Shown here: piece by piece, positions 1-13,300 of the stretch
Layout of the letters: the number at the start of each line of letters is the position of its first letter
Position numbering within the stretch: the first letter of the stretch is position 1
Virus record (IMG/VR): IMGVR_UViG_2681813205_000017
Coordinates: 1-13,300 of that record
Reading direction: 5' to 3' (one strand)
Source of the DNA: a virus
Taxonomy: Duplodnaviria > Heunggongvirae > Uroviricota > Caudoviricetes
DNA length: 13,300 bases
Notes under the pieces: generated by a model
Seen by the model: only the letters and a program-made list of their open reading frames with translations
The model's database searches: none
What the model was told of the DNA's origin: nothing
Made by a program: the position numbers and the translations under genes

Positions 1-162
1 ATTACTGCTTCAGGTTGGTGTATTGCTTGCATCTTTCCCTTTTCATTCATAAAGATAGATCAAACAACAAAACCACCACCACCCCCCTGAAAAGGCTCAT
101 AAATAGCGAAAATCCGCGAGGTCTCCGCCCCGTAACAGGTCCATATGCCGGAAAGGACCCGC

Positions 163-184
163 AAAAAAGCCGGATTTCTCCGGC
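163..184 (-). terminator. Intrinsic terminator ending the capsid operon (GCCGGA-GAAA-UCCGGC stem-loop plus U6 on the - strand)
   Basis: 6-bp GC-rich stem with a GNRA tetraloop followed by six U on the - strand RNA, 7 bp downstream of the stop of the 191..604 gene. Confidence 0.7.
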
Positions 185-190
185 CTTGTC

Positions 191-604
191 TCAGATGGTT
201 TTCAGTATGCGATCGATGTCGCCGTCATCGCCCGGGTTTCTGCCATCGTATGCCATGCCAGCTGATACGGCTTGTGGGCTGTGCATGTCCATAAAGTTTT
301 CAAAGGCTGCGGTAAGCTCTGGTGCAACCTTCGGGCGTTCCTGCTCTATGGTCATGTTCAGGATGTTTTTAGCCGTATCAACATCAATACAAGGCACGTT
401 TGCCATTGCACGTAACAGCGGCTGATAGTCGTCAGATTCATGAAGCGCCATAATCGCATCAGCGCGCGGCTTGTCCTTCTCTTCCAGGCTGTTAAGTTGA
501 TATACGGCCTCGTAGGTTGATAAACCTCTGTCAGCCATTGCCCGCGCTTCGGCTTTAAATTTACTCGCCAGCGGTAGCGTCATGATACTTTCATTCGTTG
601 CCAT
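191..604 (-). CDS. Hypothetical protein, last gene of the capsid operon (137 aa)
   Basis: ATG at 604 preceded by a GGGGG Shine-Dalgarno. Starts 13 nt after the stop of the decoration-like gene and is followed by an intrinsic terminator. The + strand ORF 15..425 overlapping it lacks such context. Confidence 0.6.
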   Translation of the reverse strand: MATNESIMTLPLASKFKAEARAMADRGLSTYEAVYQLNSLEEKDKPRADAIMALHESDDYQPLLRAMANVPCIDVDTAKNILNMTIEQERPKVAPELTAAFENFMDMHSPQAVSAGMAYDGRNPGDDGDIDRILKTI

Positions 605-616
605 CGTTCCCCCTGC

Positions 617-952
617 TTATCGCGCCAGCGGCTGAACGGATACGCCAGAACCCGCAAAGGCGGCGCATTTTTTCGCGTCGGTGTCGGCGCTCTCAGGCCA
701 GTTAACGGCGGCAATATTGAATATCCCCGTCTTGTAGCACTGTGCTGATTTCTGCGTCGACGTGTCCACGGGGTACGAGGTCAGATAAACAGCCTTGCCA
801 GATTCCTGACCATCCCACGGCTTAAACTCGCCATTTTCCGCCAGCATCAGCGGGGTAAATTCCTGAATAACGCCAGCATCAGCAGCAAAATGTACCAGCG
901 TCGTGGATACCTGCTGACTACCTGCAAATAACTCAATGTATGGAGTGTCCAT
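617..952 (-). CDS. Head decoration protein, lambda gpD-like (111 aa)
   Basis: Translation shares recalled gpD motifs (TPLML, WDG, YK-G-F, WPE, KK-AFAG-VSV) and similar length. GGGGGG Shine-Dalgarno 5 nt upstream of the ATG. Immediately downstream of the capsid gene. Confidence 0.7.
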   Translation of the reverse strand: MDTPYIELFAGSQQVSTTLVHFAADAGVIQEFTPLMLAENGEFKPWDGQESGKAVYLTSYPVDTSTQKSAQCYKTGIFNIAAVNWPESADTDAKKCAAFAGSGVSVQPLAR

Positions 953-964
953 AGAATCCCCCCG

Positions 965-2020
965 TTAACCAATTTTGACGATAACAAATTTGCGAATATC
1001 TGCCGGTACCGGCTGCGGTGCGCTGTGCGTCTGCACGTACTCAATCGCCGGATCGCCGTCCTCAATCCAGTTTTTCGGGTAAAACATGTTTTGCGTTGCG
1101 CCCGTTCTGACCGCTTCCTGATCCATAATCGCACCATAGGCCACCAGCCCTTTATTGTTGGTGTTACCCAGGACCAGCAAATCAGGCTCAAGGAAATATT
1201 TTTCGGTGCCGTCGCTGTCAGTGTATTTGCCGGAATAGACGACAAGGGCAATATCGCCCAGATAGCCTTTAAAGCTCACCACTTCACCCAGGTTTTTACA
1301 GGCCAGTTCTGCGGCGGATTCTGAACCACGGGAAAGGTCGTACAGTTCGCGGAATTTTTTAAAGCTGCGTAACGTGCGCCATACTTCAGCGCCCATAATC
1401 ATGACGTTTGCGGGGCAATTGCCCTGATCAGCATAAAGCTCGATGTCATAGATTGGATCGTGTGTTTCTTTATCCAGCTCAGACCATTTTTTACCGTCAG
1501 CCTGTTCTATGATATTGCTTTCCGGGATCTTCCAGTCGATTTCATAGCGTTCTATGCCTTCGCCCTCAATGAGGTTTTTTCCGGTCGTTACCGCATTCAC
1601 CGCCAGCCATTCCACGCGTGCCTTAATGGCGTTTATCTGGCGGCGCATGTTGCCAGTAATCAGGCGCATACGGCGATAGGTAGGATCGTTAAGCTGTGCC
1701 GGATCTTCTCCAGCCATGCGCATGATGGTTTTTGTTGGATCGATTTCGTGTTTGGGTTTCATGTAGCCTGGTTTAATCGTGCTGGTTTCGTACCCTTTAT
1801 CGCGCTGGACCTGACTACCCACCATAGGCGAACAGAACGCTGACATCGTAACCTCTTCAATGTCCAGGGTGTCCAGAATGATGTTCTGGGTGTTGAAGGT
1901 CGCCACGTTCGGGAAAAACAGCGTGGTAAACAGCGGACTGAATTTAAATTCTGCAATATCCCCGCGATTCAGGTACGCGAAAAGCTGGTTAGTGTTAAGT
2001 GCCGTTGCTTTGCCTGCCAT
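965..2020 (-). CDS. Major capsid protein, lambda gpE family (351 aa)
   Basis: Translation aligns along its length with recalled lambda gpE (FKF-PLF, PGYMKPKHE, DPTYRRMR, LRSFK, RGSES, VVYSGKY, LVLGNT, YPKNW, GDPA, SAP). GGAGGTG Shine-Dalgarno; start overlaps the upstream stop (TAATG). Confidence 0.85.
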   Translation of the reverse strand: MAGKATALNTNQLFAYLNRGDIAEFKFSPLFTTLFFPNVATFNTQNIILDTLDIEEVTMSAFCSPMVGSQVQRDKGYETSTIKPGYMKPKHEIDPTKTIMRMAGEDPAQLNDPTYRRMRLITGNMRRQINAIKARVEWLAVNAVTTGKNLIEGEGIERYEIDWKIPESNIIEQADGKKWSELDKETHDPIYDIELYADQGNCPANVMIMGAEVWRTLRSFKKFRELYDLSRGSESAAELACKNLGEVVSFKGYLGDIALVVYSGKYTDSDGTEKYFLEPDLLVLGNTNNKGLVAYGAIMDQEAVRTGATQNMFYPKNWIEDGDPAIEYVQTHSAPQPVPADIRKFVIVKIG

Positions 2021-2226
2021 TATTCACCTCCATGCGTCTGATTCATGCCCAGCGCCGCGCGTAAATAGGCGCGGACCTGCCAGCCTGTTGACGGCTCAAC
2101 CATCGCCAGCGGATCAAGTCCTGCCGCAATGCCTGCTTTTACGTTCTGCTGGTGGCGTTCCTTGAGCGCCTTCACGATGTCGGGGCTTATGTACACCGAA
2201 ACACCGCCTTTTTTCTCTTCAGCCAT
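2020..2226 (-). CDS. Hypothetical small protein, first gene of the capsid operon (68 aa)
   Basis: ATG at 2226 with a purine-rich ribosome-binding site. Stop overlaps the capsid start codon (translational coupling). Lies ~55 nt downstream of a near-consensus sigma70 promoter. Confidence 0.6.
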   Translation of the reverse strand: MAEEKKGGVSVYISPDIVKALKERHQQNVKAGIAAGLDPLAMVEPSTGWQVRAYLRAALGMNQTHGGE

Positions 2227-2282
2227 AGTAAGAAATTCCTCTTCGACTTAAAAAATCATAACTGGATGTTTATCCAGTCCTG

Positions 2283-2310
2283 ATTATAATCAGAATTGCA
2301 TTTTATGCAA
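2283..2310 (-). promoter_or_regulatory. Sigma70-type promoter of the capsid operon (-35 TTGCAT, 16-bp spacer, -10 TATAAT on the - strand)
   Basis: On the - strand, TTGCAT (complement of 2305..2310) and TATAAT (complement of 2283..2288) with a 16-bp spacer. Both hexamers sit inside perfect palindromes (TTGCATTTTATGCAA and CTGATTATAATCAG). Confidence 0.55.
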
Positions 2311-2390
2311 TGATATTGAGTTATGTTGCAAATTATGAAATGATTATCCCGATCACGAACGCCAGTGCATCCAAAAACCTCATATGCAAA

Positions 2391-2429
2391 AGCCCGATAA
2401 GAACCCTCTGACCTTATCGGGCTTTTTTT
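2391..2429 (+). terminator. Strong stem-loop with T7 tract (AGCCCGATAAG ... CTTATCGGGCT TTTTTTT); + strand intrinsic terminator geometry, possibly bidirectional
   Basis: 11-bp stem followed by seven T on the + strand. On the - strand the same hairpin is followed by UUUUG. No + strand gene upstream, so it may act mainly as a second - strand terminator or insulator. Confidence 0.5.
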
Positions 2430-2435
2430 GGGCGC

Positions 2436-2457
2436 AAAAAAGCCGGATTGCTCCGGC
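2436..2457 (-). terminator. Intrinsic terminator after the 74-aa gene (GCCGGA-GCAA-UCCGGC plus U6)
   Basis: Same module as 163..184 and 2799..2821 but with a GCAA tetraloop; lies 20 bp downstream of the stop at 2478. Confidence 0.7.
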
Positions 2458-2477
2458 TATGTGTGCTGTGTGCTGGC

Positions 2478-2702
2478 TCAGTCTCTGATCTCTTTCAGAA
2501 ATTCTATCAATGCATCTATCTGTTCAGGATTTACCGCCAGCATTTCACCGGACAGAGCACATCTCACAAAACCATGCTGATCCTTTTCAATCAGTGCGCC
2601 CGTCTCCAGGAATGCGCGGTAATCATTGATGCTCATCGTCTCCATGTTGTCAGCATGGTATTTATCACGCTGTTTTAATATCTCATCAAATTTCATCGGC
2701 AT
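2478..2702 (-). CDS. Hypothetical protein (74 aa), monocistronic moron-like cassette
   Basis: ATG at 2702 preceded by AGAGGA. The gene is bracketed by intrinsic terminators on both sides (2799..2821 upstream, 2436..2457 downstream). Confidence 0.6.
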   Translation of the reverse strand: MPMKFDEILKQRDKYHADNMETMSINDYRAFLETGALIEKDQHGFVRCALSGEMLAVNPEQIDALIEFLKEIRD

Positions 2703-2798
2703 TGTTTTTTTCCTCTGTTGTGTCTGTTTGTTTCAGATAGTAACTATGCCTGACCGTGACGAAAACCCGGTAATGCGCCATACCGTTTCAACTGGTGC

Positions 2799-2821
2799 AA
2801 AAAAAGCCGGATTTCTCCGGC
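2799..2821 (-). terminator. Intrinsic terminator after the PerC-like gene (GCCGGA-GAAA-UCCGGC plus U7)
   Basis: GNRA-tetraloop hairpin plus U-tract on the - strand, 8 bp downstream of the stop at 2829. Confidence 0.7.
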
Positions 2822-2828
2822 TGTTTGA

Positions 2829-3104
2829 TTAGCTGTCCTGGTAATTGCGCCATATTTCATCACCAGCACCATCTATACCCATTTCGGCATAAGTGCGATC
2901 GACTGCCTTTTTCAGGTCTCCGAAATTATCCGGCGGCTCCGGTGCCCTCTGTGCCTTCCTTGAACATTCCAGCCGTCGCATCGTGATGTGATGCCGTTCC
3001 TTGTCTGTCTCCACCAGCTGCATGACTTCACCCCATCGCGCCGCCGCCCTCCGGTAAAAGCCTTTCGCCTCTAGTTCCTCCGCTATGCGGTCATGTACCA
3101 TCGT
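2829..3104 (-). CDS. PerC-family transcriptional regulator (91 aa)
   Basis: N-terminal AEELEAKGFYRRAAARWGEVM matches the recalled PerC/Pch signature (LE-G-WRRAA-RW). The likely start is the ATG at 3104 (GAGGGGG Shine-Dalgarno, 8 nt after the SSB stop) rather than the ORF-track start at 3221, which would overlap ssb by 110 nt. Confidence 0.65.
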   Translation of the reverse strand, partial: TMVHDRIAEELEAKGFYRRAAARWGEVMQLVETDKERHHITMRRLECSRKAQRAPEPPDNFGDLKKAVDRTYAEMGIDGAGDEIWRNYQDS

Positions 3105-3111
3105 CACCCCC

Positions 3112-3522
3112 TCAGAACGAAATATCATCACCGTAAGGGTCATCGCCTCCCGCTGGTGGCTGATTACCCTGTGTGCCTGTGGTTTTGCGTCTGTTCCCGC
3201 CAGGACGTGCCGCACGGGCACTGATTACGCTGTCTGCAATAACCTGATACCCCTGCCGTGTTTCCCCGTTCTGTCCGGTCCACTGGCTTACCTGCATCGT
3301 GCCGGATACGCTGGCAACATCGCCTTTTTGATGTTTAGCCAGGAAATCGGCCTGTTTGCCAAATGCGATAACCGATAACCATAACGTCGCCTGTCCGTCA
3401 TGTGCCTGGCTGCATGGCAACGATACCGCCATACGCGCCAGAGTCATCGGTGTGCCCTTGCTGGTCTGTTTTACCTGCGGGTCGTCCACCAGCCGCCCGT
3501 AAGCGGCTATCTGTGCCGTCAT
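3112..3522 (-). CDS. ssb: Single-stranded DNA-binding protein (136 aa)
   Basis: OB-fold core resembles E. coli SSB (W-x-x-V-x-x-FGK ... KG ... W), followed by a Gly/Gln/Pro-rich linker and an acidic C-terminal tail DDPYGDDISF (E. coli SSB ends DDDIPF). GGAGAGGTG Shine-Dalgarno; ATGA overlap with the upstream gene. Confidence 0.85.
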   Translation of the reverse strand: MTAQIAAYGRLVDDPQVKQTSKGTPMTLARMAVSLPCSQAHDGQATLWLSVIAFGKQADFLAKHQKGDVASVSGTMQVSQWTGQNGETRQGYQVIADSVISARAARPGGNRRKTTGTQGNQPPAGGDDPYGDDISF

Positions 3523-3770
3523 AATTCCACCTCTCCGGTTTTAACGTTGATGGTTGTTACCTGTTCCGCTTCGGCAATCTCCCGTTCTGTCAGCGTGGCA
3601 AAGTTTGCCGCCGCCGTGGTCATGAATGCGCTTATCAGGTCGGGATGTTCCTTCGCGTATCCTTCCCGCGTGTGGCGGTCTATCGTTCTGATTGCCACCT
3701 TTAAGGTGTGCTCAGTCATGTCTAACGCTTTATATTTTGGCTCTGTTCTGTCTCTGCGTTTTTGGGTCAT
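3519..3770 (-). CDS. Hypothetical protein (83 aa from the ATG at 3770; alternative start at 3800 gives 93 aa)
   Basis: ORF translationally coupled to ssb (ATGA overlap). The ATG at 3770 has a GAGAGG ribosome-binding site and avoids overlap with the iterons. Confidence 0.5.
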   Translation of the reverse strand: MTQKRRDRTEPKYKALDMTEHTLKVAIRTIDRHTREGYAKEHPDLISAFMTTAAANFATLTEREIAEAEQVTTINVKTGEVEL

Positions 3771-3782
3771 TTCTCGCAACCT

Positions 3783-3973
3783 CTCACTTTTTCGCCTCAC
3801 TTTTTCAAGCGTCTCACTTCGTCGCAGCTGGGATTTTCGGTTTTTCTATGTGTGTGTTTCATAAGTATTTTTTTACCCCTCACTTTTGAGGATGTATACA
3901 GGTCGAAAAGTGAGGGAGAGCAGGCTAATTTTGGCCCTCTTTCTATCCACCTCGCTTTTGCTCCTCACTTTTA
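3783..3973. repeat. Putative replication origin: six CTCACTT(TT) iterons flanking an AT-rich stretch
   Basis: CTCACTT copies at 3783, 3796, 3813 and 3879, an inverted copy at 3906..3915 (AAAAGTGAGG) and another at 3963, plus a degenerate copy near 3950. AT-rich segment 3836..3876. Lies directly 3' of the helicase gene. Confidence 0.55.
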
Positions 3974-5371
3974 TAGCGGCGCTACATCATCCCCATCGAT
4001 ACGAATAACCCCATCTTTTTCCAGCTTGTACAGCCAGCGCCGGAAGTTTTTCATTTCATACCCCAGCTTTTTCATGTCATCACGTAACAGCGGGATCGTG
4101 CACTTGTCGCCGTTCTGTGTGCGTGAACGGATGCACCCCCATAGCGCGGTATGGTTTTCCGTCTTGTTCCCTGCCTCCTCGATGCGCTCCAGTTCAACAG
4201 GAGGGCGCGGATCATCCACCACCACCAGCGACGTGATTAATTCACCGTCAGCGTCGGTAAAAAGCTCCACCACGCGTAAGTCATATGCGGCTTCTTTGAG
4301 TTCCTCCGCGTCCTTCATTTTGGTGCATGAGATAACCAGCGCTTCGCTTCCTGCGTCCTCCCTGCGTATCCGGTATTCAGCATCCAGCGAAGCACGAAAT
4401 GCACTGGAACCGCGCGCGCCTTTCGTCTCATCCTTGCCGGAATGGTGAACCACCAGCACCGTGGCCCCTGTGCGTCGTTTCAGTTCGTCACAACCACGGA
4501 TAAACGCCCCCATATCACGGGAATCATTTTCATCATTCCCACCAAAGCAACGCGCCAGCGTATCCAGAATAATCATGCGTACAGGTTTACCCGTTTCCCG
4601 CTCCACCTGACGGGCAGCGATAACCATTTCATCAACATCAAGCGGGGCAGCCGGAAAGATGGGGCGGTTTACCAGATACAGATTTTTCACCTGCTCATCG
4701 TGCACAACCTCCCAGGCTTTTACACGACGCGGAACACCTATACCGCCTTCACCAACCACATAGAGAACCGCACCATGTGCAACCCTGCGGCCTCCCCACT
4801 GGCGACCAGTGGCAACATGGCACGCCCACGATCCGGCAAGGAATGATTTATAGGACCCGCTAGCCCCGTATATGCTGCATAGCGATACCGCCGGAATAAT
4901 CCCCTTAACCACGTAATCCAGTTGCGTGTCGTATCCGGTAGATCCAACGCTCATCGGTAGCGTGGTTTTTCGCTGGTGGTTTTTTTCTTCCGCCGGCTCT
5001 TTCCCGCGCACCCGTTCCAGGTATTCGCGCCAGTTCTCCCGCATATGGCTGTGCATCCCTTCGGGGTAATAATTCGCATCAGTTACACCCGCCGCCGCCA
5101 GCTTGTGCGCAATGGCATTAATATTTGATGGCCTGATGTGGCCTGCCTTGTACAGCCGGACACAATAGCGCCCCTCGTCGATGATTCTCAGGTCTGCCAG
5201 TTCATCCAGTTGATCATCAGCCAGCACAACGGGAGGCACATTATCGCCAGCCAGTCGCCCGTCCTGTTCCTGCCACTGTTTCGCATGTGCCCAGGCATCA
5301 CTACCCGCAAAAATAATGACTTCGGTCATCTTGTCGTAAGGCTGTTTTTTTAAGTTCGGTGCGCTTTTCAT
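3971..5371 (-). CDS. Replication initiator / replicative helicase, RecA-fold ATPase (RepA / AAA_25-like), 466 aa
   Basis: Walker A-like GASGSYKS, Walker B-like MIILDTLARCF, and VLVVHHSGKD typical of RepA/DnaB-like helicases of satellites and plasmids. ATGA overlap with the upstream gene; iterons immediately downstream. Confidence 0.75.
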   Translation of the reverse strand: MKSAPNLKKQPYDKMTEVIIFAGSDAWAHAKQWQEQDGRLAGDNVPPVVLADDQLDELADLRIIDEGRYCVRLYKAGHIRPSNINAIAHKLAAAGVTDANYYPEGMHSHMRENWREYLERVRGKEPAEEKNHQRKTTLPMSVGSTGYDTQLDYVVKGIIPAVSLCSIYGASGSYKSFLAGSWACHVATGRQWGGRRVAHGAVLYVVGEGGIGVPRRVKAWEVVHDEQVKNLYLVNRPIFPAAPLDVDEMVIAARQVERETGKPVRMIILDTLARCFGGNDENDSRDMGAFIRGCDELKRRTGATVLVVHHSGKDETKGARGSSAFRASLDAEYRIRREDAGSEALVISCTKMKDAEELKEAAYDLRVVELFTDADGELITSLVVVDDPRPPVELERIEEAGNKTENHTALWGCIRSRTQNGDKCTIPLLRDDMKKLGYEMKNFRRWLYKLEKDGVIRIDGDDVAPL

Positions 5372-5667
5372 TTCTTGCCCCTGAATCCGTTAATCATGGT
5401 TTTCAGCTTCTGGATGTTTGCCCGTGCCCTGGCGTTGCTGGTGGGCACGTTATGCGGCGCGGTCTGTACCAGAGAAAAATCACGCCGGAACTGATAAACA
5501 GGCATCACGCAATCATATTCGTAACCTTCACGGCGGTAGGTTACGCGCCGTTCTTCCACGCCCTTAATCATTACCGTGCCGCCGTACTGGTCGCGGTAAA
5601 TATCACCGCGCGTAAATTTAGGGTGAGTGTTGCCACTGGCAGTTAAGCCAGAATATTTAAGTTTCAT
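5368..5667 (-). CDS. Hypothetical protein (99 aa), translationally coupled to the helicase gene
   Basis: ATG at 5667; stop overlaps the helicase start (ATGA). Basic, Tyr/Arg-rich; no recognisable motif. Confidence 0.55.
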   Translation of the reverse strand: MKLKYSGLTASGNTHPKFTRGDIYRDQYGGTVMIKGVEERRVTYRREGYEYDCVMPVYQFRRDFSLVQTAPHNVPTSNARARANIQKLKTMINGFRGKK

Positions 5668-5672
5668 TATTT

Positions 5673-5906
5673 TTATTCTCCGGTGTGCTGTTCTTTATAT
5701 CTGTCGTGCAATAGATCTATTTCTTGCAGTTCCATTATTACAGGATCAAGAAGCGTTATTAATGCCGTGGCAATTCTTGATTTTTGTTTGTCGCGTTCAT
5801 TGTCGCCAAGTGTTTCAAGCCATATGCGCAATATTTCCAGCATGTTTTCACTGTGAGAAAGTGCAAGAAATGCGCGGTCTATTGTTTGGTGGTAAATATC
5901 ACGCAT
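5673..5906 (-). CDS. Hypothetical protein (77 aa)
   Basis: ATG at 5906 overlaps the stop of the upstream gene (ATGCGTGA). Part of the same coupled gene chain. Confidence 0.55.
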   Translation of the reverse strand: MRDIYHQTIDRAFLALSHSENMLEILRIWLETLGDNERDKQKSRIATALITLLDPVIMELQEIDLLHDRYKEQHTGE

Positions 5907-6357
5907 GGCTTACATCCTCAGGAAATTTTCTTCTATAACGCGCCTCTGCCACATATTCCGCATAATCGGCGGCGATATTCAGTACATCAAGCCCCGTTGA
6001 TTTATATTCTCTCGTGGAAAGTAAGAAAAAAGCCGCTCTAATAAGTTCTGGCATTGACGAAAGCGCATCAGCCGCATCATCAGGAACGCCGGAAAATTCC
6101 TGTTTCAGGGAATTAAAACGATCATCACGCATAACCCCCCCCCCATTTTCACAATCAGCAACAAGAATATTTTTAGCGTCATTCAGCGACCGCGTTGCGG
6201 TGTATCGGATACATTCCAGGGCGAATAGTGTGTATTCTTCCCTTTCTTCCCTTTCTTCCTTTTGTGCAAGCTCTGCTGTGCATTCAATATCAATAAGCGC
6301 GTGCATCAGCGTAGTGAGTGCGGCGGCGGCTGCGTCCGGTGTGGTTTTATTGCACAT
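5899..6357 (-). CDS. Hypothetical acidic protein (153 aa from the ATG at 6357) containing an in-frame G10 tract
   Basis: ATG at 6357 has a GGAGGGG Shine-Dalgarno 3 nt upstream. The ORF-track start at 6411 has no ribosome-binding site and would overlap the upstream gene by 65 nt. Contains an EEREEREE repeat and the Gly-Gly-Gly encoded by the C10 run at 6135..6144. Confidence 0.55.
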   Translation of the reverse strand: MCNKTTPDAAAAALTTLMHALIDIECTAELAQKEEREEREEYTLFALECIRYTATRSLNDAKNILVADCENGGGVMRDDRFNSLKQEFSGVPDDAADALSSMPELIRAAFFLLSTREYKSTGLDVLNIAADYAEYVAEARYRRKFPEDVSHA

Positions 6358-6577
6358 GTACCCCTCCGCATTTTTTTTCGTTAGAAATAAGCGTTCTTCT
6401 TTCCTGTTCATCGATCAGGAATACGCAGACCTCACCGCTAAGGCGTTTAAGTAAGCCGATGATTGCCCCTGATTCGCTGTCGGTCATCATGCCTGGGTAA
6501 TCCTCTGCCAGTGCGCAAATAACTTCGATTTGGTGGGCGCGTTCTACTGCCTGTTGTAGTGTGATTTCCTGGCTCAT
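6347..6577 (-). CDS. Hypothetical protein (76 aa)
   Basis: ATG at 6577 with a GGGGG ribosome-binding site; ATGA overlap with the candidate upstream ORF. Contains an A8 tract on the coding strand. Confidence 0.55.
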   Translation of the reverse strand: MSQEITLQQAVERAHQIEVICALAEDYPGMMTDSESGAIIGLLKRLSGEVCVFLIDEQERRTLISNEKKCGGVHVQ

Positions 6578-6774
6578 AAGCCTACCCCCTGACGAATACG
6601 GGCAGCGAATACCATCACGCAGCCAGCCGGGGATTGCAGGCGTGCTTCCTGTTCGCTGGTGGCCTCAATGGTAATCACGCGCGGTTGTGCAGTGCTCAGG
6701 GCGATAAAACGCCAAATGTATTTATTCAGGTTGTGCGAGTCCCGCCCTTGCGGGTGTGTGGTATGATTTCTCAT
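6574..6774 (-). CDS. Candidate small ORF (66 aa), putative first gene of the early operon
   Basis: Not listed separately in the ORF track; it is the C-terminal end of the spurious 381-aa ORF. ATG at 6774 with a GAGG ribosome-binding site 6 nt upstream; stop overlaps the next start (ATGA); ~100 nt downstream of the predicted - strand promoter. Confidence 0.4.
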   Translation of the reverse strand: MRNHTTHPQGRDSHNLNKYIWRFIALSTAQPRVITIEATSEQEARLQSPAGCVMVFAARIRQGVGL

Positions 6775-6872
6775 AGCTACCTCGATACTCTCGTTATCGT
6801 TGGTGGTTAGAAGCCCCGTTACTGCTCCTACAGTGCGGGGTTTCGTCGTTTCTGCACCTTGCATTAACAAGG

Positions 6873-6950
6873 TGTAAGTAACTTTATTTATAGGTGGCTT
6901 ACATGTCAATGCTTTTATGTAAGACTTTTTATGTGTATATTGTCTTACAC
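6873..6950. promoter_or_regulatory. Divergent switch region: four TGTAAG / CTTACA operator half-sites overlapping a - strand TTGACA-N17-TAAAGT promoter
   Basis: Half-sites at 6873 (TGTAAG), 6898 (CTTACA), 6919 (TGTAAG) and 6945 (CTTACA), alternating in orientation. On the - strand a perfect -35 TTGACA (complement of 6904..6909) and a -10 TAAAGT (complement of 6881..6886) with a 17-bp spacer. Confidence 0.5.
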
Positions 6951-6970
6951 TTTCATTGAGAGGATTACAG

Positions 6971-7276
6971 ATGGCTACAGGTTCAAAAAACGCAAAATCA
7001 CAATCACTGACAGCTCGGATCCCGCATGATGTTATTGAAGGCATGGAATCCGTAAAACTGGACGGTGAAAGCAACGCCGGATTCATAGTAACCGCCATGC
7101 GCGGTGAAATCGCCCGCCGCCAGGCAGAAGGAAGCGGAGAAAACCTCCTGATTTCTTCGCTCAATGCACTGGCGCAGGTGGAAAAACTCGGAATCAAAGC
7201 CGCCGAGGAGATCGGGCAGCTCGTCACTGTCGCACGTGAAGAACTCCAGCGCCGCAAGACTAAAGAACCAGAGTAA
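6971..7276 (+). CDS. Putative transcriptional regulator, candidate repressor of the early operon (101 aa)
   Basis: ATG at 6971 with a GAGAGGA Shine-Dalgarno. Divergent from the - strand operon and immediately downstream of the operator cluster. Function is inferred from position only. Confidence 0.55.
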   Translation: MATGSKNAKSQSLTARIPHDVIEGMESVKLDGESNAGFIVTAMRGEIARRQAEGSGENLLISSLNALAQVEKLGIKAAEEIGQLVTVAREELQRRKTKEPE

Positions 7277-7318
7277 TCACCATCAGCGCCGTGGTGTAAG
7301 GTATTACGGCGCATTGCT

Positions 7319-7507
7319 ATGCAGGACAACACAATGACCGATAAAGAATTGACCAAAACATTATCACCGGCACGGAAAAGACGGCGCAGAAAGATAGAGC
7401 ATGAATCAGAAAGATTCGCGCCATGTGCTTTTGCCCTTGAGCAATTCCTTAAAGAGTACAGGGAAAAGCGCTCATTGCAGGTATGGCAACGAACTGAACC
7501 AGACTGA
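7319..7507 (+). CDS. Small basic protein (62 aa; alternative start at 7334)
   Basis: ORF following the regulator on the same strand, with a Lys/Arg-rich stretch (ARKRRRRK). Followed by an intrinsic terminator at 7603..7630. Confidence 0.4.
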   Translation: MQDNTMTDKELTKTLSPARKRRRRKIEHESERFAPCAFALEQFLKEYREKRSLQVWQRTEPD

Positions 7508-7602
7508 TAGCATTGCCCACCAGCCTGATAGCGACTATCATTGCCGTTCTTATGTTTGGGATCACACACACAAACGGCGCAGCGGGTTATCTGTTCAGAA
7601 AG

Positions 7603-7630
7603 GCGGCTCCATTTCGGGGCCGCTTTTTTT
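7603..7630 (+). terminator. Intrinsic terminator for the + strand regulator genes
   Basis: GCGGCUCC ... GGGGCCGC stem (one G-U wobble) with a 5-nt loop, followed by seven T. Confidence 0.6.
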
Positions 7631-7776
7631 ATGTCTGAAAAACCCCAATTTTGTTGTTTTTCAGTTTCACCAGGGCGAACGAATCCCCGCCCACGTTCTG
7701 GCGTATATTCAATCTTCATGGTTATAGCTCTGTGTTCAGATGATTGATGTGTGGCGGCTGCGTGCCGCCAGCGTGA

Positions 7777-7965
7777 TTAATGAACTGCCTTGCAGCTATC
7801 CTTCCAGGCCAGAACCTCGGATAAAGACCAGCCAACGGAACGACCGCCAAGTTTACGACGTGATGGGAATTGTCCGGCCTTTTCCAGGCGGTAGCGACAC
7901 GTACGGCTAAGGCCGGTTAGTTTTTCGCATTCTTTTTCACGTATAAACCGATCAGTGCTTAACAC
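7777..7965 (-). CDS. alpA: AlpA-family phage regulator / excisionase-like protein (62 aa from GTG at 7965)
   Basis: CEKLTGLSRTCRYRLEKAGQFP ... GGRSVGWSLSEVLAWK matches the AlpA helix-turn-helix signature. The ORF track starts at a TTG at 8046, but a GTG at 7965 has an AGGGGGG Shine-Dalgarno and gives the typical AlpA length. Confidence 0.75.
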   Translation of the reverse strand: MLSTDRFIREKECEKLTGLSRTCRYRLEKAGQFPSRRKLGGRSVGWSLSEVLAWKDSCKAVH

Positions 7966-8238
7966 TATTGCCCCCCTTTCGTTTCTTAAAGAGTCATCAG
8001 GTGTCTTATTGTGTCGTATTGTTCCCGCTAGAGTGATGAATGGCAAATATTGAGGATGTATGATTTACAGAAAATGAAACAGTAAGAATAAAATCTTTTA
8101 AATTCATGTTAATACAAAGGCATAAAATATTGTTTCATGCCTTTTTTCTCACGCGTTAAAGCGTTATTCGCTAATGTATAAAAAAACAGTCACACAAATA
8201 AAATCAGTCACTTATAAACCTGTGTACTTTTTCGCCTC

Positions 8239-8288
8239 TTGTTCGTGGTTGTTCCACGTTGTTTCACATTGTTCGCCGTTGTATCTGT
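8239..8288. repeat. Five tandem 10-bp units each beginning TTGT (helically phased) between int and alpA
   Basis: TTGTTCGTGG TTGTTCCACG TTGTTTCACA TTGTTCGCCG TTGTATCTGT, an exact 10-bp period. Confidence 0.6.
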
Positions 8289-8330
8289 GTGCTTATCCAG
8301 TATGCGCATACTGAAAAAACACGAAAAAAA

Positions 8331-9548
8331 TTATTTTCTTCTGGCTGCTGGTAGTGCGGTTACGTTTTCATGTGTTCCCGCCAGTATCCCTAACCGCTCC
8401 ATCCACATATCCAGCGCATTGCGTTTAGCATCCAGATAACGGGAATGATTATAAACTCGCTGCATTCCTGGCATCTGGTGGCCTGTAAGCTGCTCCACGA
8501 CATGCGGATCAACGCCTAAATCGTTCAGCATGGTTGTAAAGGTGCGCCGGATGTCATGCAGTGACCAGTGAGGATGATTAAGCCTCCTGTGCGCTAATCT
8601 TCCATACTGCGATACGCTGGCCTCCTGTTTCACTTCCCCCAGCAATAAGCCCGTGTGCCTGTTCTGCTCCACCAGCTGCGTGACGAACGGCAGTATTGCT
8701 TCCGGTATGGGCCGGAATATTGCCACCTTCGTTTTGCTGTGTTCTTTCGGCACGGTCCAGAGCATTTCGGTAAAATCCCACTCGCTGATCTCCGATAACC
8801 TCAGTTCTACCGTCCGGCATCCGAACACAATCAGGAGGCGGATTAACGCGATGTAGTAGGGGGAGAATATTTTTTTGTCCAGTGCCTGCAATAATTCGCC
8901 CAGTTCTTTGGTGCTTAAGACACGCTCGCTTATATCCGGTTTTTTCCCAACGTCCGCCACACTCATATCATCAAGAACGTTGCTGATTGCATAGCGCCGC
9001 CTCCGGCAGAACTTAAGCGCCTGTTTGCACGTCTGTAGCAAGAATCCGGCAGTAACAGGCGTTCGCTTTGCCACCTGGTCAAAACAGGCCAGCCAGTGCC
9101 GTAGCTCGCATTTATCCAGCGGCATAGCACCAATGTGCTGTATTACGTGATTATTAAGTCGCCTTTTCAGGGCGATATAATCCACGCGGTTTTCCTTTAC
9201 GTAATACTCAAGCCAGTAGGTGAGCGCATCGCCAACCGTTACGGGCTTTAACGCTTCCTGTACGGTGTAATTCATCTCATGACGTGGATTTTTCCCCTCA
9301 GCCAGCCATGTGCGACACTGTGCGGCTTTTTCCCTGGCTGCTTTCAGGCTCAGATCAGGATAACTTCCCAGCTTAATGCGTTCGGGTCGTGTCTCCCTTC
9401 CCGTTCCGGCCCTGTATGTGAAATACCAGGTCAATTTCCCTGATGTTAAATATTTCACGCTCAGGTTTCCGCCATCACTATAAAACGTGTTTTTCTCCGC
9501 TGGCTTACCATGAAGTTTCCTTAGCAAGGTATCGCTCAGTTTGTTCAT
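8331..9548 (-). CDS. int: Tyrosine integrase, P4-like family
   Basis: N-terminal arm-binding-type motif (KPAEKNTFYSDGGNLSVKYL), C-terminal catalytic region with HDIRRT and VYNHSRY (R, H-x-x-R, Y). Start is probably the ATG at 9548 (MNKLSD...); the ORF track uses a GTG at 9560. It is the outermost island gene next to the junction. Confidence 0.85.
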   Translation of the reverse strand: MNKLSDTLLRKLHGKPAEKNTFYSDGGNLSVKYLTSGKLTWYFTYRAGTGRETRPERIKLGSYPDLSLKAAREKAAQCRTWLAEGKNPRHEMNYTVQEALKPVTVGDALTYWLEYYVKENRVDYIALKRRLNNHVIQHIGAMPLDKCELRHWLACFDQVAKRTPVTAGFLLQTCKQALKFCRRRRYAISNVLDDMSVADVGKKPDISERVLSTKELGELLQALDKKIFSPYYIALIRLLIVFGCRTVELRLSEISEWDFTEMLWTVPKEHSKTKVAIFRPIPEAILPFVTQLVEQNRHTGLLLGEVKQEASVSQYGRLAHRRLNHPHWSLHDIRRTFTTMLNDLGVDPHVVEQLTGHQMPGMQRVYNHSRYLDAKRNALDMWMERLGILAGTHENVTALPAARRK

Positions 9549-9584
9549 TGCTCTGCTCACGTTTTACCCCCTCTTTACGAAAAA

Positions 9585-9650
9585 GTGACTACACCAGTGA
9601 CTACACCGATCGTTGCACAAAGGGCTACAACGTGAAACAAGCTGGAACAA
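9585..9650. promoter_or_regulatory. int upstream region with a 12-bp tandem repeat (GTGACTACACC x2) and four 10-bp phased units ending ACAA; candidate arm-type or regulator binding sites
   Basis: GTGACTACACCA GTGACTACACCG at 9585..9608. CGTTGCACAA AGGGCTACAA CGTGAAACAA GCTGGAACAA at 9611..9650, which is the reverse complement motif of the array at 8239..8288. Confidence 0.45.
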
Positions 9651-9757
9651 GGAAAATCACAAATCTGTTGATAATCAAAAACATAATGCACAGCCTGAAA
9701 CATTATGAAACAGCAAAAAACACTAAATGATAAAATGCTGTTATTCTTAACCCGCTG

Positions 9758-10642
9758 GTGCAACACATGGTCCGCTGGCGAGTGCCGCGTGTACTGGCGG
9801 TGTCGATTTTGATGACCATCATCGTGATGGCGATGGTGTTGCTATTAGCTTATCTGGGTTCCGCGCTCAACGAGTTGACGCGGACGTTACCGCAATATCG
9901 CAACTCTATTATGACGCCGCTGCAAGCTCTTGAGCCGTTGTTGCAACGCGTAGGGATTGACGTCTCAGTTGACCAGCTGGCGCATTACATTGATCCGAAC
10001 GCGGCGATGACGTTGCTCACCAACTTATTGACGCAGTTATCTAATGCCATGTCATCAATATTTTTATTGCTGCTGACGGTGCTGTTTATGCTGCTCGAAG
10101 TGCCACAATTGCCCGGAAAATTTCAGCAAATGATGGCGCGTCCGGTTGAAGGGATGGCGGCGATTCAACGTGCAATTGACAGTGTTTCTCATTATCTGGT
10201 GCTGAAAACAGCCATCAGCATCATCACCGGCCTGGTCGCCTGGGCGATGCTCGCCGCACTCGATGTTCGCTTCGCTTTTGTCTGGGGATTGCTGGCCTTT
10301 GCGCTTAATTACATCCCTAATATTGGTTCAGTTCTCGCGGCAATCCCCCCTATCGCTCAGGTACTGGTGTTTAATGGCTTCTACGAAGCGTTGCTGGTGC
10401 TGGCGGGATATCTGCTGATTAATCTGGTCTTCGGCAATATTCTGGAGCCGCGCATCATGGGACGTGGGCTGGGGCTTTCCACATTGGTGGTATTTTTGTC
10501 GTTGATTTTTTGGGGATGGTTGTTAGGACCGGTGGGTATGCTGCTTTCCGTGCCGTTAACAATTATTGTCAAAATTGCGCTTGAACAAACAGCGGGAGGT
10601 CAAAGCATCGCCGTTCTGTTAAGCGATCTCAATAAAGAGTGA
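9758..10642 (+). CDS. tqsA: AI-2 exporter TqsA (YdgG), 5'-truncated by the island insertion (294 codons retained)
   Basis: Translation matches recalled E. coli TqsA from its internal [15 protein letters not shown] segment to the C-terminal SDLNKE. An in-frame TAA at 9731..9733 lies directly upstream and there is no native N-terminus or ribosome-binding site. The ORF-track start is an internal GTG. Confidence 0.8.
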
Positions 10643-10662
10643 CGGCCTCCGCAGAGGCCGTC
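10641..10662. terminator. Shared stem-loop between convergent tqsA and pntB (GACGGCCTC-cgca-GAGGCCGTC)
   Basis: 9-bp perfect GC-rich inverted repeat lying exactly between the two stop codons. Confidence 0.55.
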
Positions 10663-10666
10663 AGGG

Positions 10667-12058
<1,392 letters not shown>

Positions 12059-12065
12059 TTACCCC

Positions 12066-13300
<1,235 letters not shown>

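Follow-up and report, generated by a model that had tools for sequence, protein, structure and literature searches.

A 74-residue acidic protein encoded at a fixed junction of phage-inducible chromosomal islands in Enterobacterales

Introduction

When a small gene of a phage satellite lies between two transcription terminators, is it a cassette that arrived on its own or a resident whose bracketing has another origin, and what might its product do? The question arises from a stretch of 13,300 nucleotides of virus record IMGVR_UViG_2681813205_000017 (positions 1 to 13,300; referred to in full as the window), which represents a phage-inducible chromosomal island (PICI) of Escherichia coli of the EcCICFT073 type and encodes, ahead of its capsid genes, an acidic protein of 74 residues. 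A sequence-only reading had taken this gene to be a terminator-insulated, independently acquired accessory gene resembling the morons of phages. Our analysis shows the gene to be real, conserved, under purifying selection and optional, and gene order across genera indicates that its family forms the conserved upstream flank of a cargo hotspot rather than a one-off insertion. Concerning function, there is in our estimation an even chance that the product is an accessory factor which binds other proteins, is produced while the island is quiescent and is aimed at a phage or host protein, an interpretation that leans on analogy with interference genes of other satellites.

Gram-negative PICIs and capsid-forming PICIs (cf-PICIs) are intensively studied, and their small genes are mostly unassigned. 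The present family matters because it keeps one fixed junction from Shigella to Proteus, borders a region of defence cargo and has a predicted fold without relative in the searched libraries, and because, in cultures of enterohaemorrhagic E. coli given no inducer, the protein can be detected at strain-dependent levels alongside a PerC-like regulator. Accessory or moron-like genes at the variable junction of a satellite are a known kind of feature; new here are the family-wide synteny, the terminator-bounded indel in two island backgrounds, the confident structural model without structural relative, and the proteomic link.

Results and Discussion

The gene and its bracketing terminators

The features that concern the gene directly are the following:

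2702..2478, minus strand: coding sequence of the 74-residue acidic protein (ATG start; 8.6 kDa; isoelectric point (pI) 4.8; PHROG 1957)
2703..2797, minus strand: leader of this gene, 95 nt, with a weak promoter candidate and a GAGGA site
2798..2822, minus strand: upstream terminator, that of perC; stem 2822..2805 (7 bp, 5 of them G-C, tetraloop) plus U7 at 2804..2798
2436..2458, minus strand: downstream terminator, that of the 74-residue protein gene; stem 2458..2441 plus U5 at 2440..2436

A ribosome-binding site, GAGGA, lies at 2715..2711, 8 nt upstream of the ATG. The product (RefSeq WP_001132079.1) matches the hidden Markov model of PHROG 1957, a family annotated as of unknown function, over its full length (residues 1-74 on profile positions 1-74 of 82; E = 2.3e-42, 144 bits), and the ratio of nonsynonymous to synonymous polymorphism (pN/pS) between E. 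coli alleles is ~0.18, which denotes purifying selection. This match, the existence of homologs at ~40% identity and the low pN/pS together establish that the gene is real; it is already annotated as hypothetical in hundreds of genomes. The EDL933/Sakai copy of the protein is 96-99% identical and stands in the same order of perC, terminator, gene and terminator; Sakai ECs1589 can be inferred to be the same family member from its neighbours, ECs1588 being pchE and ECs1590 the major head protein.

That the gene is bracketed by intrinsic terminators was borne out, both being stem-loops with U tracts on the minus strand like the gene itself. The upstream one, AGCCGGAGAAATCCGGCU followed by U7, begins 6 nt past the perC stop (2829) and folds at -13.2 kcal/mol (z = -3.4 against shuffles), and the downstream one, AGCCGGAGCAAUCCGGCU followed by U5, lies 19 nt past the stop of the 74-residue protein gene and folds at -15.9 kcal/mol (z = -4.8). 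The two form a 28-nt direct repeat, 89% identical, at a distance of 364 nt.

A fixed slot beside a variable spacer

An exhaustive HMMER search retrieved ~17 representative relatives of 66-106 residues and 30-42% identity, and a profile search traced relatives to Klebsiella, Citrobacter, Ewingella and Arsenophonus; a repeat protein of 1,383 residues (P0019) that also surfaced among the representatives was discarded as a false positive caused by its repeats. No homolog was found by tblastn in 50,697 phage records. Contigs carrying the family are mostly 7-18 kb in length, that is, satellite-sized, and to judge by these searches the family is essentially confined to elements of this size class.

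The order of genes around homologs of 33-47% identity follows one scheme, namely replication gene, homolog, variable spacer and capsid gene. Among distant IMG/VR loci (39-47% identity) the homolog occupied this slot in 40 of 40 cases, with an HK97-type capsid gene; in most loci it started 227-556 nt downstream of the replication-gene match, and the capsid gene followed 232-2,237 nt further on. On contigs drawn from one genome per species, replication gene, homolog and HK97-type capsid gene recurred in 12 of 14 loci, and the species-representative loci stem from Shigella, Phytobacter, Pectobacterium, Kluyvera, Kosakonia, Enterobacter, Serratia, Leclercia and Proteus. In Klebsiella the homolog comes after an AAA_25 helicase or a DUF927 primase and before a protease-capsid fusion gene or an HK97-type capsid module; Ewingella has the same arrangement with two convergent genes in between. 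The exceptions are a ~16-kb Arsenophonus element, where the homolog follows terL, and a metagenomic element, where it stands beside an integrase and a rolling-circle Rep protein. The gap between replication gene and homolog is where the replication origin has been placed (PMC6092414).

Judged against this background, the earlier placement of the gene between replication and capsid modules was right as to position, except that its immediate upstream neighbours in the window are perC and then the gene for single-strand DNA-binding protein (SSB), not the replication gene. Conservation of the gene at this position throughout related elements, which the sequence-only reading had named as evidence against itself, is largely approached by the two counts above, but some related elements lack the gene. 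The upstream terminator is limited to the E. coli/Shigella arrangement because perC precedes the gene there. Upstream of distant homologs no PerC-like open reading frame (ORF) was found, the homolog directly following the replication gene, and a PerC-like gene as constant upstream partner outside E. coli was rejected on this ground. A terminator stands directly downstream of about half of the homologs.

The spacer between homolog and capsid gene varies from 0.2 to 2.2 kb and holds diverse cargo: a candidate defence pair recognized by PADLOC, PDC-M32A/B, in Kosakonia (contig L027, 6373-7861), a DDE_3 transposase of an insertion sequence (IS) in one IMG/VR contig (L227, 6279-7310), and a convergent 170-residue gene of unassigned family (L006, 7294-7806) in Klebsiella, Ewingella, Kluyvera, Enterobacter and Proteus, besides other ORFs without assignment. 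A two-gene module made up of the 74-residue family and the convergent gene was considered and rejected, as the latter occurs in merely 10 of the 40 IMG/VR loci and 4 of the 14 genome loci and is missing from the window. He et al. (10.1101/2025.02.11.637232) pointed to variability just ahead of the packaging operon of cf-PICIs, in a region where they expect immune systems to be encoded. It is this fixed slot next to a variable, cargo-carrying spacer from which we deduce that the family marks the conserved flank of a hotspot; in the window the hotspot is empty.

A clean indel in E. coli islands

Presence and absence of the unit composed of leader and gene were recorded for 5,426 complete E. coli genomes:

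unit (leader plus 74-residue protein gene): 541/5,426 genomes
gpE-type capsid leader: 598/5,426 genomes
unit and gpE-type leader adjacent: 360/5,426 genomes
cf-PICI capsid leader: 361/5,426 genomes

The ~180 further carriers therefore hold the unit in another context, which was a cf-PICI in the examples examined. Islands devoid of the gene make up ~40% of the gpE-capsid type and apparently about half of the cf-PICIs. Exactly 364 bp, corresponding to leader, gene and one terminator, are missing from NR329, CFT073 and the cf-PICI of Ecol_316. Four states can be distinguished: perC, terminator, gene, terminator and capsid leader in the window and in O157:H7 strain PV15-279; perC, one terminator and capsid leader in NR329 and CFT073; SSB, the same terminator, ~170 nt and capsid leader, without perC, in E. 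coli Nissle (EcN_Sk); and, in the cf-PICI background, the unit present in O157 and RM9245 and missing in Ecol_316. In every alignment, and in two genetic backgrounds, the junction falls at the terminator. With a direct repeat on either side, the 364-bp unit amounts to a clean indel, which could equally well have come about by deletion between the repeats or by insertion of a gene that brought its own terminator; gain as well as loss of the unit may have proceeded by recombination at the repeated terminator.

EcCICFT073, which lacks the gene, was reported to be induced, replicated, packaged and transferred at high frequency (PMC6092414), so that islands of this type can complete their cycle without the gene. 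The gene is also an outlier in composition, with a GC content of 0.431 and 0.48 at third codon positions (GC3) compared with 0.50-0.57 and 0.54-0.61 for nine other island genes. Its earlier portrayal as an independently acquired accessory gene thus stands in so far as the gene is optional, exactly missing in relatives and of low GC content, but its presence in the same slot across genera does not agree with a sporadic recent acquisition.

In E. coli the unit travels with an SSB-perC block: positions 2437-3772 are 94% identical between two island types (window versus L002) that differ in their replication and packaging modules, and the same allele of the 74-residue protein occurs with two replicases and two capsid modules. 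EcCIEDL933 combines an HK97-type packaging module with a DUF927 primase, the window island lambda gpE/gpD-type capsid genes with a RepA helicase. Older microarray data agree, since ECs1586-1589 were not among the lineage-specific genes of Sp7 (PMC1890555). Relative to the O157:H7 PV15-279 island, a sharp mosaic breakpoint lies at ~2250: positions 2251-6150 are mostly 99-100% identical (95-96% at 3151-3450), but identity drops to 82-98% in the capsid module on the left. Exchange has thus affected the capsid operon as a block, from its first gene on.

One hairpin as island-wide punctuation

When the terminator was searched as a 21-mer with up to three mismatches, three occurrences were found in the window against 0.00 expected, the additional one at 165-185. 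This and two further elements around the capsid operon are:

163..185, minus strand: third copy of the terminator hairpin (one mismatch), after the 137-residue gene (191-604) at the end of the capsid operon
2388..2426, unstranded: perfect hairpin with 14-bp stem and T runs on both strands, following the downstream terminator, between cassette and capsid leader
2227..2387, minus strand: capsid operon leader with promoter candidate TTGCAT (2310..2305), 16-nt spacer, TATAAT (2288..2283)

The same hairpin stands after SSB in E. coli Nissle (EcN_Sk) and after perC in NR329; one hairpin sequence serves the island as general punctuation. As the upstream terminator is perC's own and the hairpin is reused across the island, we regard the bracket as a consequence of this punctuation, and the upstream hairpin not as part of the cassette. 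Terminator-like sites in the window number 26, compared with 14.5 +/- 3.4 in shuffles. In viral contigs the 21-mer follows perC (39 cases), SSB (27), the 74-residue protein gene (14) and other ORFs (27), and an exact copy occurs in a 41-kb viral contig (L049, 5391-5411) for which the phage collection yielded no match other than a Bacteroides phage. A role of the terminator as dedicated recombination linker was rejected, given the many different genes that the 21-mer follows and its occurrence in this contig; unrelated elements seem to have converged on a simple terminator hairpin.

The hairpin at 2388-2426 is conserved in islands without the gene, no convergent plus-strand gene adjoins it, and from its sequence it may act as a second, back-up terminator for the 74-residue protein gene. 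The capsid leader is likewise common to islands lacking the gene. Its promoter candidate has a perfect -10 element and is embedded in overlapping palindromes, CTGATTATAATCAG and TTGCATAAAATGCAA (2272-2310, minus strand), which look like operator sites for a regulator. In the leader of the 74-residue protein gene, a promoter candidate consists of TTTTCG (-35, 2765..2760), a 17-nt spacer and TACTAT (-10, 2742..2737); it ends 34 nt before the ATG, agrees with the consensus at 7 of 12 positions and is conserved in three allelic variants. Of the transcriptional isolation claimed for the gene, the 3' side is supported by sequence, with a predicted terminator of the gene's own and a second hairpin, but independent transcription is something we can only infer in view of so weak a promoter candidate. 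An RNA element in the 95-nt leader was rejected, as Rfam matched nothing anywhere in the window at E <= 1 and the fold of the leader is unremarkable (z = -1.9).

As a separate observation, RefSeq annotates a 42-residue ORF (2744-2872, minus strand; WP_001301569.1) that spans the end of perC, the terminator and part of the leader, has no family match and appears in other genomes as a "trigger factor" pseudogene with a frameshift; the annotation is probably an artefact.

Detection of the EDL933 copy of the protein in cultures without added inducer

A published tandem mass tag (TMT) proteomics study of O157:H7 (PMC5120812) lists, for exponential cultures in Dulbecco's modified Eagle medium (DMEM) without inducer, EDL933_1785, a 9-kDa protein of OI-51/CP-933C, in cell extract and supernatant. 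According to the same listing, EDL933_1785 was 5.35-fold higher in the strain carrying a window-type island, and a PchE-like protein was likewise higher in that strain. Rafaela II has the window-type unit at 99.7% identity. We identify EDL933_1785 as the counterpart of the 74-residue protein on three grounds: in a record in which pchE is unannotated, it bears the gi number (667691364) next after the one of the prophage SSB (667691363); the calculated mass of 8.6 kDa fits the reported 9 kDa; and alignment of the interval from SSB to the gene (387 identities, 20 mismatches, 2 gaps) matches the reported 406-nt upstream region that is 95% identical between strains. SSB and EDL933_1785 were the only entries with gi numbers in the island's range among the supplement proteins listed.

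A published study also reported that mutation of a "hypothetical gene 1792" reduced EcCIEDL933 transfer. Equating 1792 with the 74-residue protein gene was rejected, because gi and locus numbering assign 1785 to the latter and 1792 to an ORF between HNH and terS; the 1792 result thus has no bearing on the gene discussed here.

An acidic protein with a confident fold

In family alignments Y28, D41, H43, A56, E60, Q61, D63, L65 and L69 are conserved. An AlphaFold model built with 27 homologs was confident (mean predicted local distance difference test score (pLDDT) 90.4) and comprises predicted helices 5-14, 17-22 and 25-33, strands 38-40, 46-48 and 54-56, and a long C-terminal helix, 59-73. The homology search and structure prediction that the sequence-only reading had proposed have thereby yielded a family, PHROG 1957, and a fold for which Foldseek returned no structural relative in PDB and BFVD at E <= 0.001; nothing usable came from a sequence search of PDB chains. 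The absence of a recognizable motif was confirmed: no family was assigned by Pfam (for any of the 27 family members) or NCBIfam, and no PADLOC defence-protein model matched at E <= 0.01. A match to DUF7189 (E = 0.0098, below the curated cut-off) was rejected, since it was not reproduced in other members. All family members are acidic, with pI values of 4.6-5.9 and net charges of -2 to -10, and neither the DNA-binding fold nor the basic surface of a winged-helix or helix-turn-helix regulator was found. The acidity of the family argues against DNA binding and in favour of protein binding.

Comparison with known systems

The moron concept is said to go back to Juhala, Hendrix and colleagues and their phages HK97 and HK022; bor and lom of phage lambda are examples. 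The 74-residue protein gene resembles a moron in being single and small, in lying between genes that are adjacent in relatives, in having its own predicted factor-independent terminator and an atypical base composition, and in being dispensable for the cycle of its element; its 96%-identical EDL933 copy was, moreover, detected as protein in cultures given no inducer, where spontaneous induction may have contributed. It differs in that it has no clear promoter of its own and the upstream terminator belongs to perC, in that the family is not sporadic but an old resident in the same slot of many genera, and in that its host is a satellite rather than a phage.

Fillol-Salom et al. (2022) reportedly described a variable region before the PICI packaging operon, where immune systems are to be expected. 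The variable region of cf-PICIs and PICIs (He et al., 10.1101/2025.02.11.637232) occupies the same place of the island, and the stretch downstream of our gene likewise varies and may hold a candidate defence pair or an IS. The gene itself is a conserved flank, however, not variable cargo, and matches no PADLOC model.

Ppi and PtiA/PtiM of Staphylococcus aureus pathogenicity islands (SaPIs) and Rpp of EcCICFT073 are small satellite proteins that bind helper-phage proteins. Like the 74-residue protein, they are satellite-specific, have no known phage homologs and are encoded between replication and packaging genes on the same strand (PMC6092414). Unlike them, the 74-residue protein bears no similarity in sequence or fold to solved structures and is detectable without added inducer.

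Interpretation and alternatives

According to the reading to which we give an even chance, the gene would be transcribed from its weak leader promoter or by leakage through the short terminator of perC, and the two successive hairpins downstream may stop transcription, the capsid operon thereby keeping its own operator-like promoter. The protein would bind another protein rather than DNA, its likeliest target being a host protein or one encoded by an incoming or a helper phage, which would make it an interference, defence or host-modulating factor. Several points weigh on the other side. The step to protein binding is built on acidity, small size, the missing DNA-binding fold, position and analogy with SaPI/PICI interference genes, and a profile search of PDB sequences gave a weak match (E = 2e-4; i-E = 0.12 for the best stretch) to residues 82-121 of the nicking endonuclease N.BspD6I, in its DNA-recognition domain, which hints, as a lead only, at a wing-like element. 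A consensus promoter scan of the 95-nt leader found no convincing sigma-70 promoter. Spontaneously induced cells could have been present in the proteomics culture, and that capsid proteins are missing from the listed proteins is weak evidence of quiescence. The identity of the terminator copies is perhaps partly convergent, given the 21-mer in an unrelated contig. Finally, synteny across genera would also fit a role in the cf-PICI life cycle, dispensability being known for the gpE-capsid type (EcCICFT073) alone.

A more far-reaching version, which we hold to be unlikely, is that the protein is the founding member of a new fold family, constitutive satellite factors at the head of the PICI/cf-PICI defence and cargo hotspot across Enterobacterales, with a phage or host protein as target. 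Its task might be to sense incoming phages or block them, or else to keep a Gram-negative island that lacks a repressor quiescent until a helper arrives, and the conserved polar cluster D41, H43, E60, Q61 and D63 would be the active surface.

A classic moron, that is, a transcription unit acquired recently and independently that brought its own promoter and terminator into the space separating perC from the capsid operon, would explain why genes that adjoin in relatives are separated in the window, why the gene has its own terminator and a GC content of 43% versus 50-57% for the rest of the island, and why the protein is present in cultures without inducer. We nevertheless find it improbable, considering that homologs of 33-47% identity hold the same junction in 40/40 and 12/14 loci of other genera, that the gene travels with the SSB-perC block in E. 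coli, that the recombination breakpoint to the O157:H7 island falls at ~2250 and not at the cassette, and that the promoter candidate is weak; the alleles without the gene fit deletion between terminator repeats just as well. The very constancy that speaks against a moron would be expected of a component of the life cycle, made from the early or replication unit and either controlling replication (like Cnr of P4) or switching on or assisting the capsid/packaging operon. The position, preceded by replication gene and origin gap and followed by the capsid gene, is invariant whichever replicase (RepA helicase, D5-type primase or DUF927 primase) or capsid module is present, and about half of the homologs are directly followed by a terminator, as would be the last gene of a unit. 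Such a role is in our view improbable to the same degree, with EcCICFT073 being induced, replicating, being packaged and transferring at high frequency without the gene (PMC6092414), ~40% of gpE-type E. coli islands and apparently half of the cf-PICIs lacking it, one allele serving two replicases and two capsid modules, and the family being acidic without DNA-binding fold.

Two further alternatives take the neighbourhood as their starting point. The terminators might be read through upon induction, an antiterminating polymerase proceeding from alpA through perC, the 74-residue protein gene and the capsid operon, so that the hairpins matter only in quiescence. Gram-negative PICIs are transcribed in one direction in an AlpA-dependent manner (PMC6092414), a Pseudomonas aeruginosa protein that bears the name AlpA is a processive antiterminator (PMC7969949), and three copies of one hairpin interrupt the co-directional gene array. 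But the island AlpA (PF05930) shows no detectable similarity to the PDB chains of P. aeruginosa AlpA, its sole match there being another "AlpA family phage regulatory protein", and the capsid leader has a good -10 element of its own, which leaves read-through with a slim chance. Slimmer still are the prospects of a partner or modulator of PerC, such as an anti-activator of the PchE-like regulator in a host-directed regulatory pair: that the gene was invariably seen right after perC in E. coli, and that both proteins were higher in the same strain, is opposed by homologs in other genera without PerC-like ORF before them and by perC occurring without the gene in CFT073, NR329 and Ecol_316.

The gene lends itself, at little cost and with clear limits, to deletion, interaction and phage-challenge work, and the clean alleles amount to a natural experiment, EcCICFT073 lacking the gene and EcCIEDL933 and the window-type island having it. 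Should it prove to be merely a dispensable accessory gene without measurable effect, the result would be an ordinary one.

The host island and neighbouring genes

The window is assigned to the EcCICFT073-type PICIs of E. coli by its integrase, AlpA, RgdR/DUF4222 protein, replicase, SSB, gpE-like capsid and gpD-like decoration genes, all co-directional, and by integration between roxA (ycfD) and phoQ. E. coli chromosomes match it at 99.5-99.8% identity, for example that of strain E2865, in the region between these two genes. Its layout is that of the classical Gram-negative PICI EcCICFT073, located at the same site; site and island type have been described (PMC6092414, PMC3378721), as have the capsid (c1499) and decoration (c1500) genes of EcCICFT073 (PMC6092414). 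In EDL933/Sakai the same site holds OI-51/CP-933C/Sp7, now known as cf-PICI EcCIEDL933. All island genes of the window lie on the minus strand:

8331-9560, minus strand: integrase
7777-8046, minus strand: AlpA (PF05930)
5368-5667, minus strand: DUF4222 protein, 99 residues, RGD at residues 20-22; homolog of RgdR (ECs1581/c1493)
3971-5371, minus strand: RepA-type helicase
3112-3522, minus strand: SSB
2829-3101, minus strand: perC-family gene, PchE-like, 90 residues, upstream neighbour of the 74-residue protein gene (PMC3378721, PMC1890555)
965-2020, minus strand: lambda gpE-like major capsid gene
191-604, minus strand: 137-residue gene closing the capsid gene set

A 68-residue gene and a gpD-like decoration gene complete the set. 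RgdR, a product of this island family, has been described as regulating type III secretion and motility (PMC3378721). For perC, a mechanically called 130-residue ORF (2829-3221, minus strand) uses a GTG further upstream and so runs into the SSB gene; translation truly starts at M41 of this ORF (3101), where both the PerC domain and the RefSeq annotation begin.

Downstream of alpA, positions 6188-7237 do not align with the closest relatives and correspond to the variable region after alpA mentioned by He et al.; a minus-strand ORF of 381 residues (6574-7719) without family match and, opposite to it, a plus-strand ORF of 106 residues are found here.

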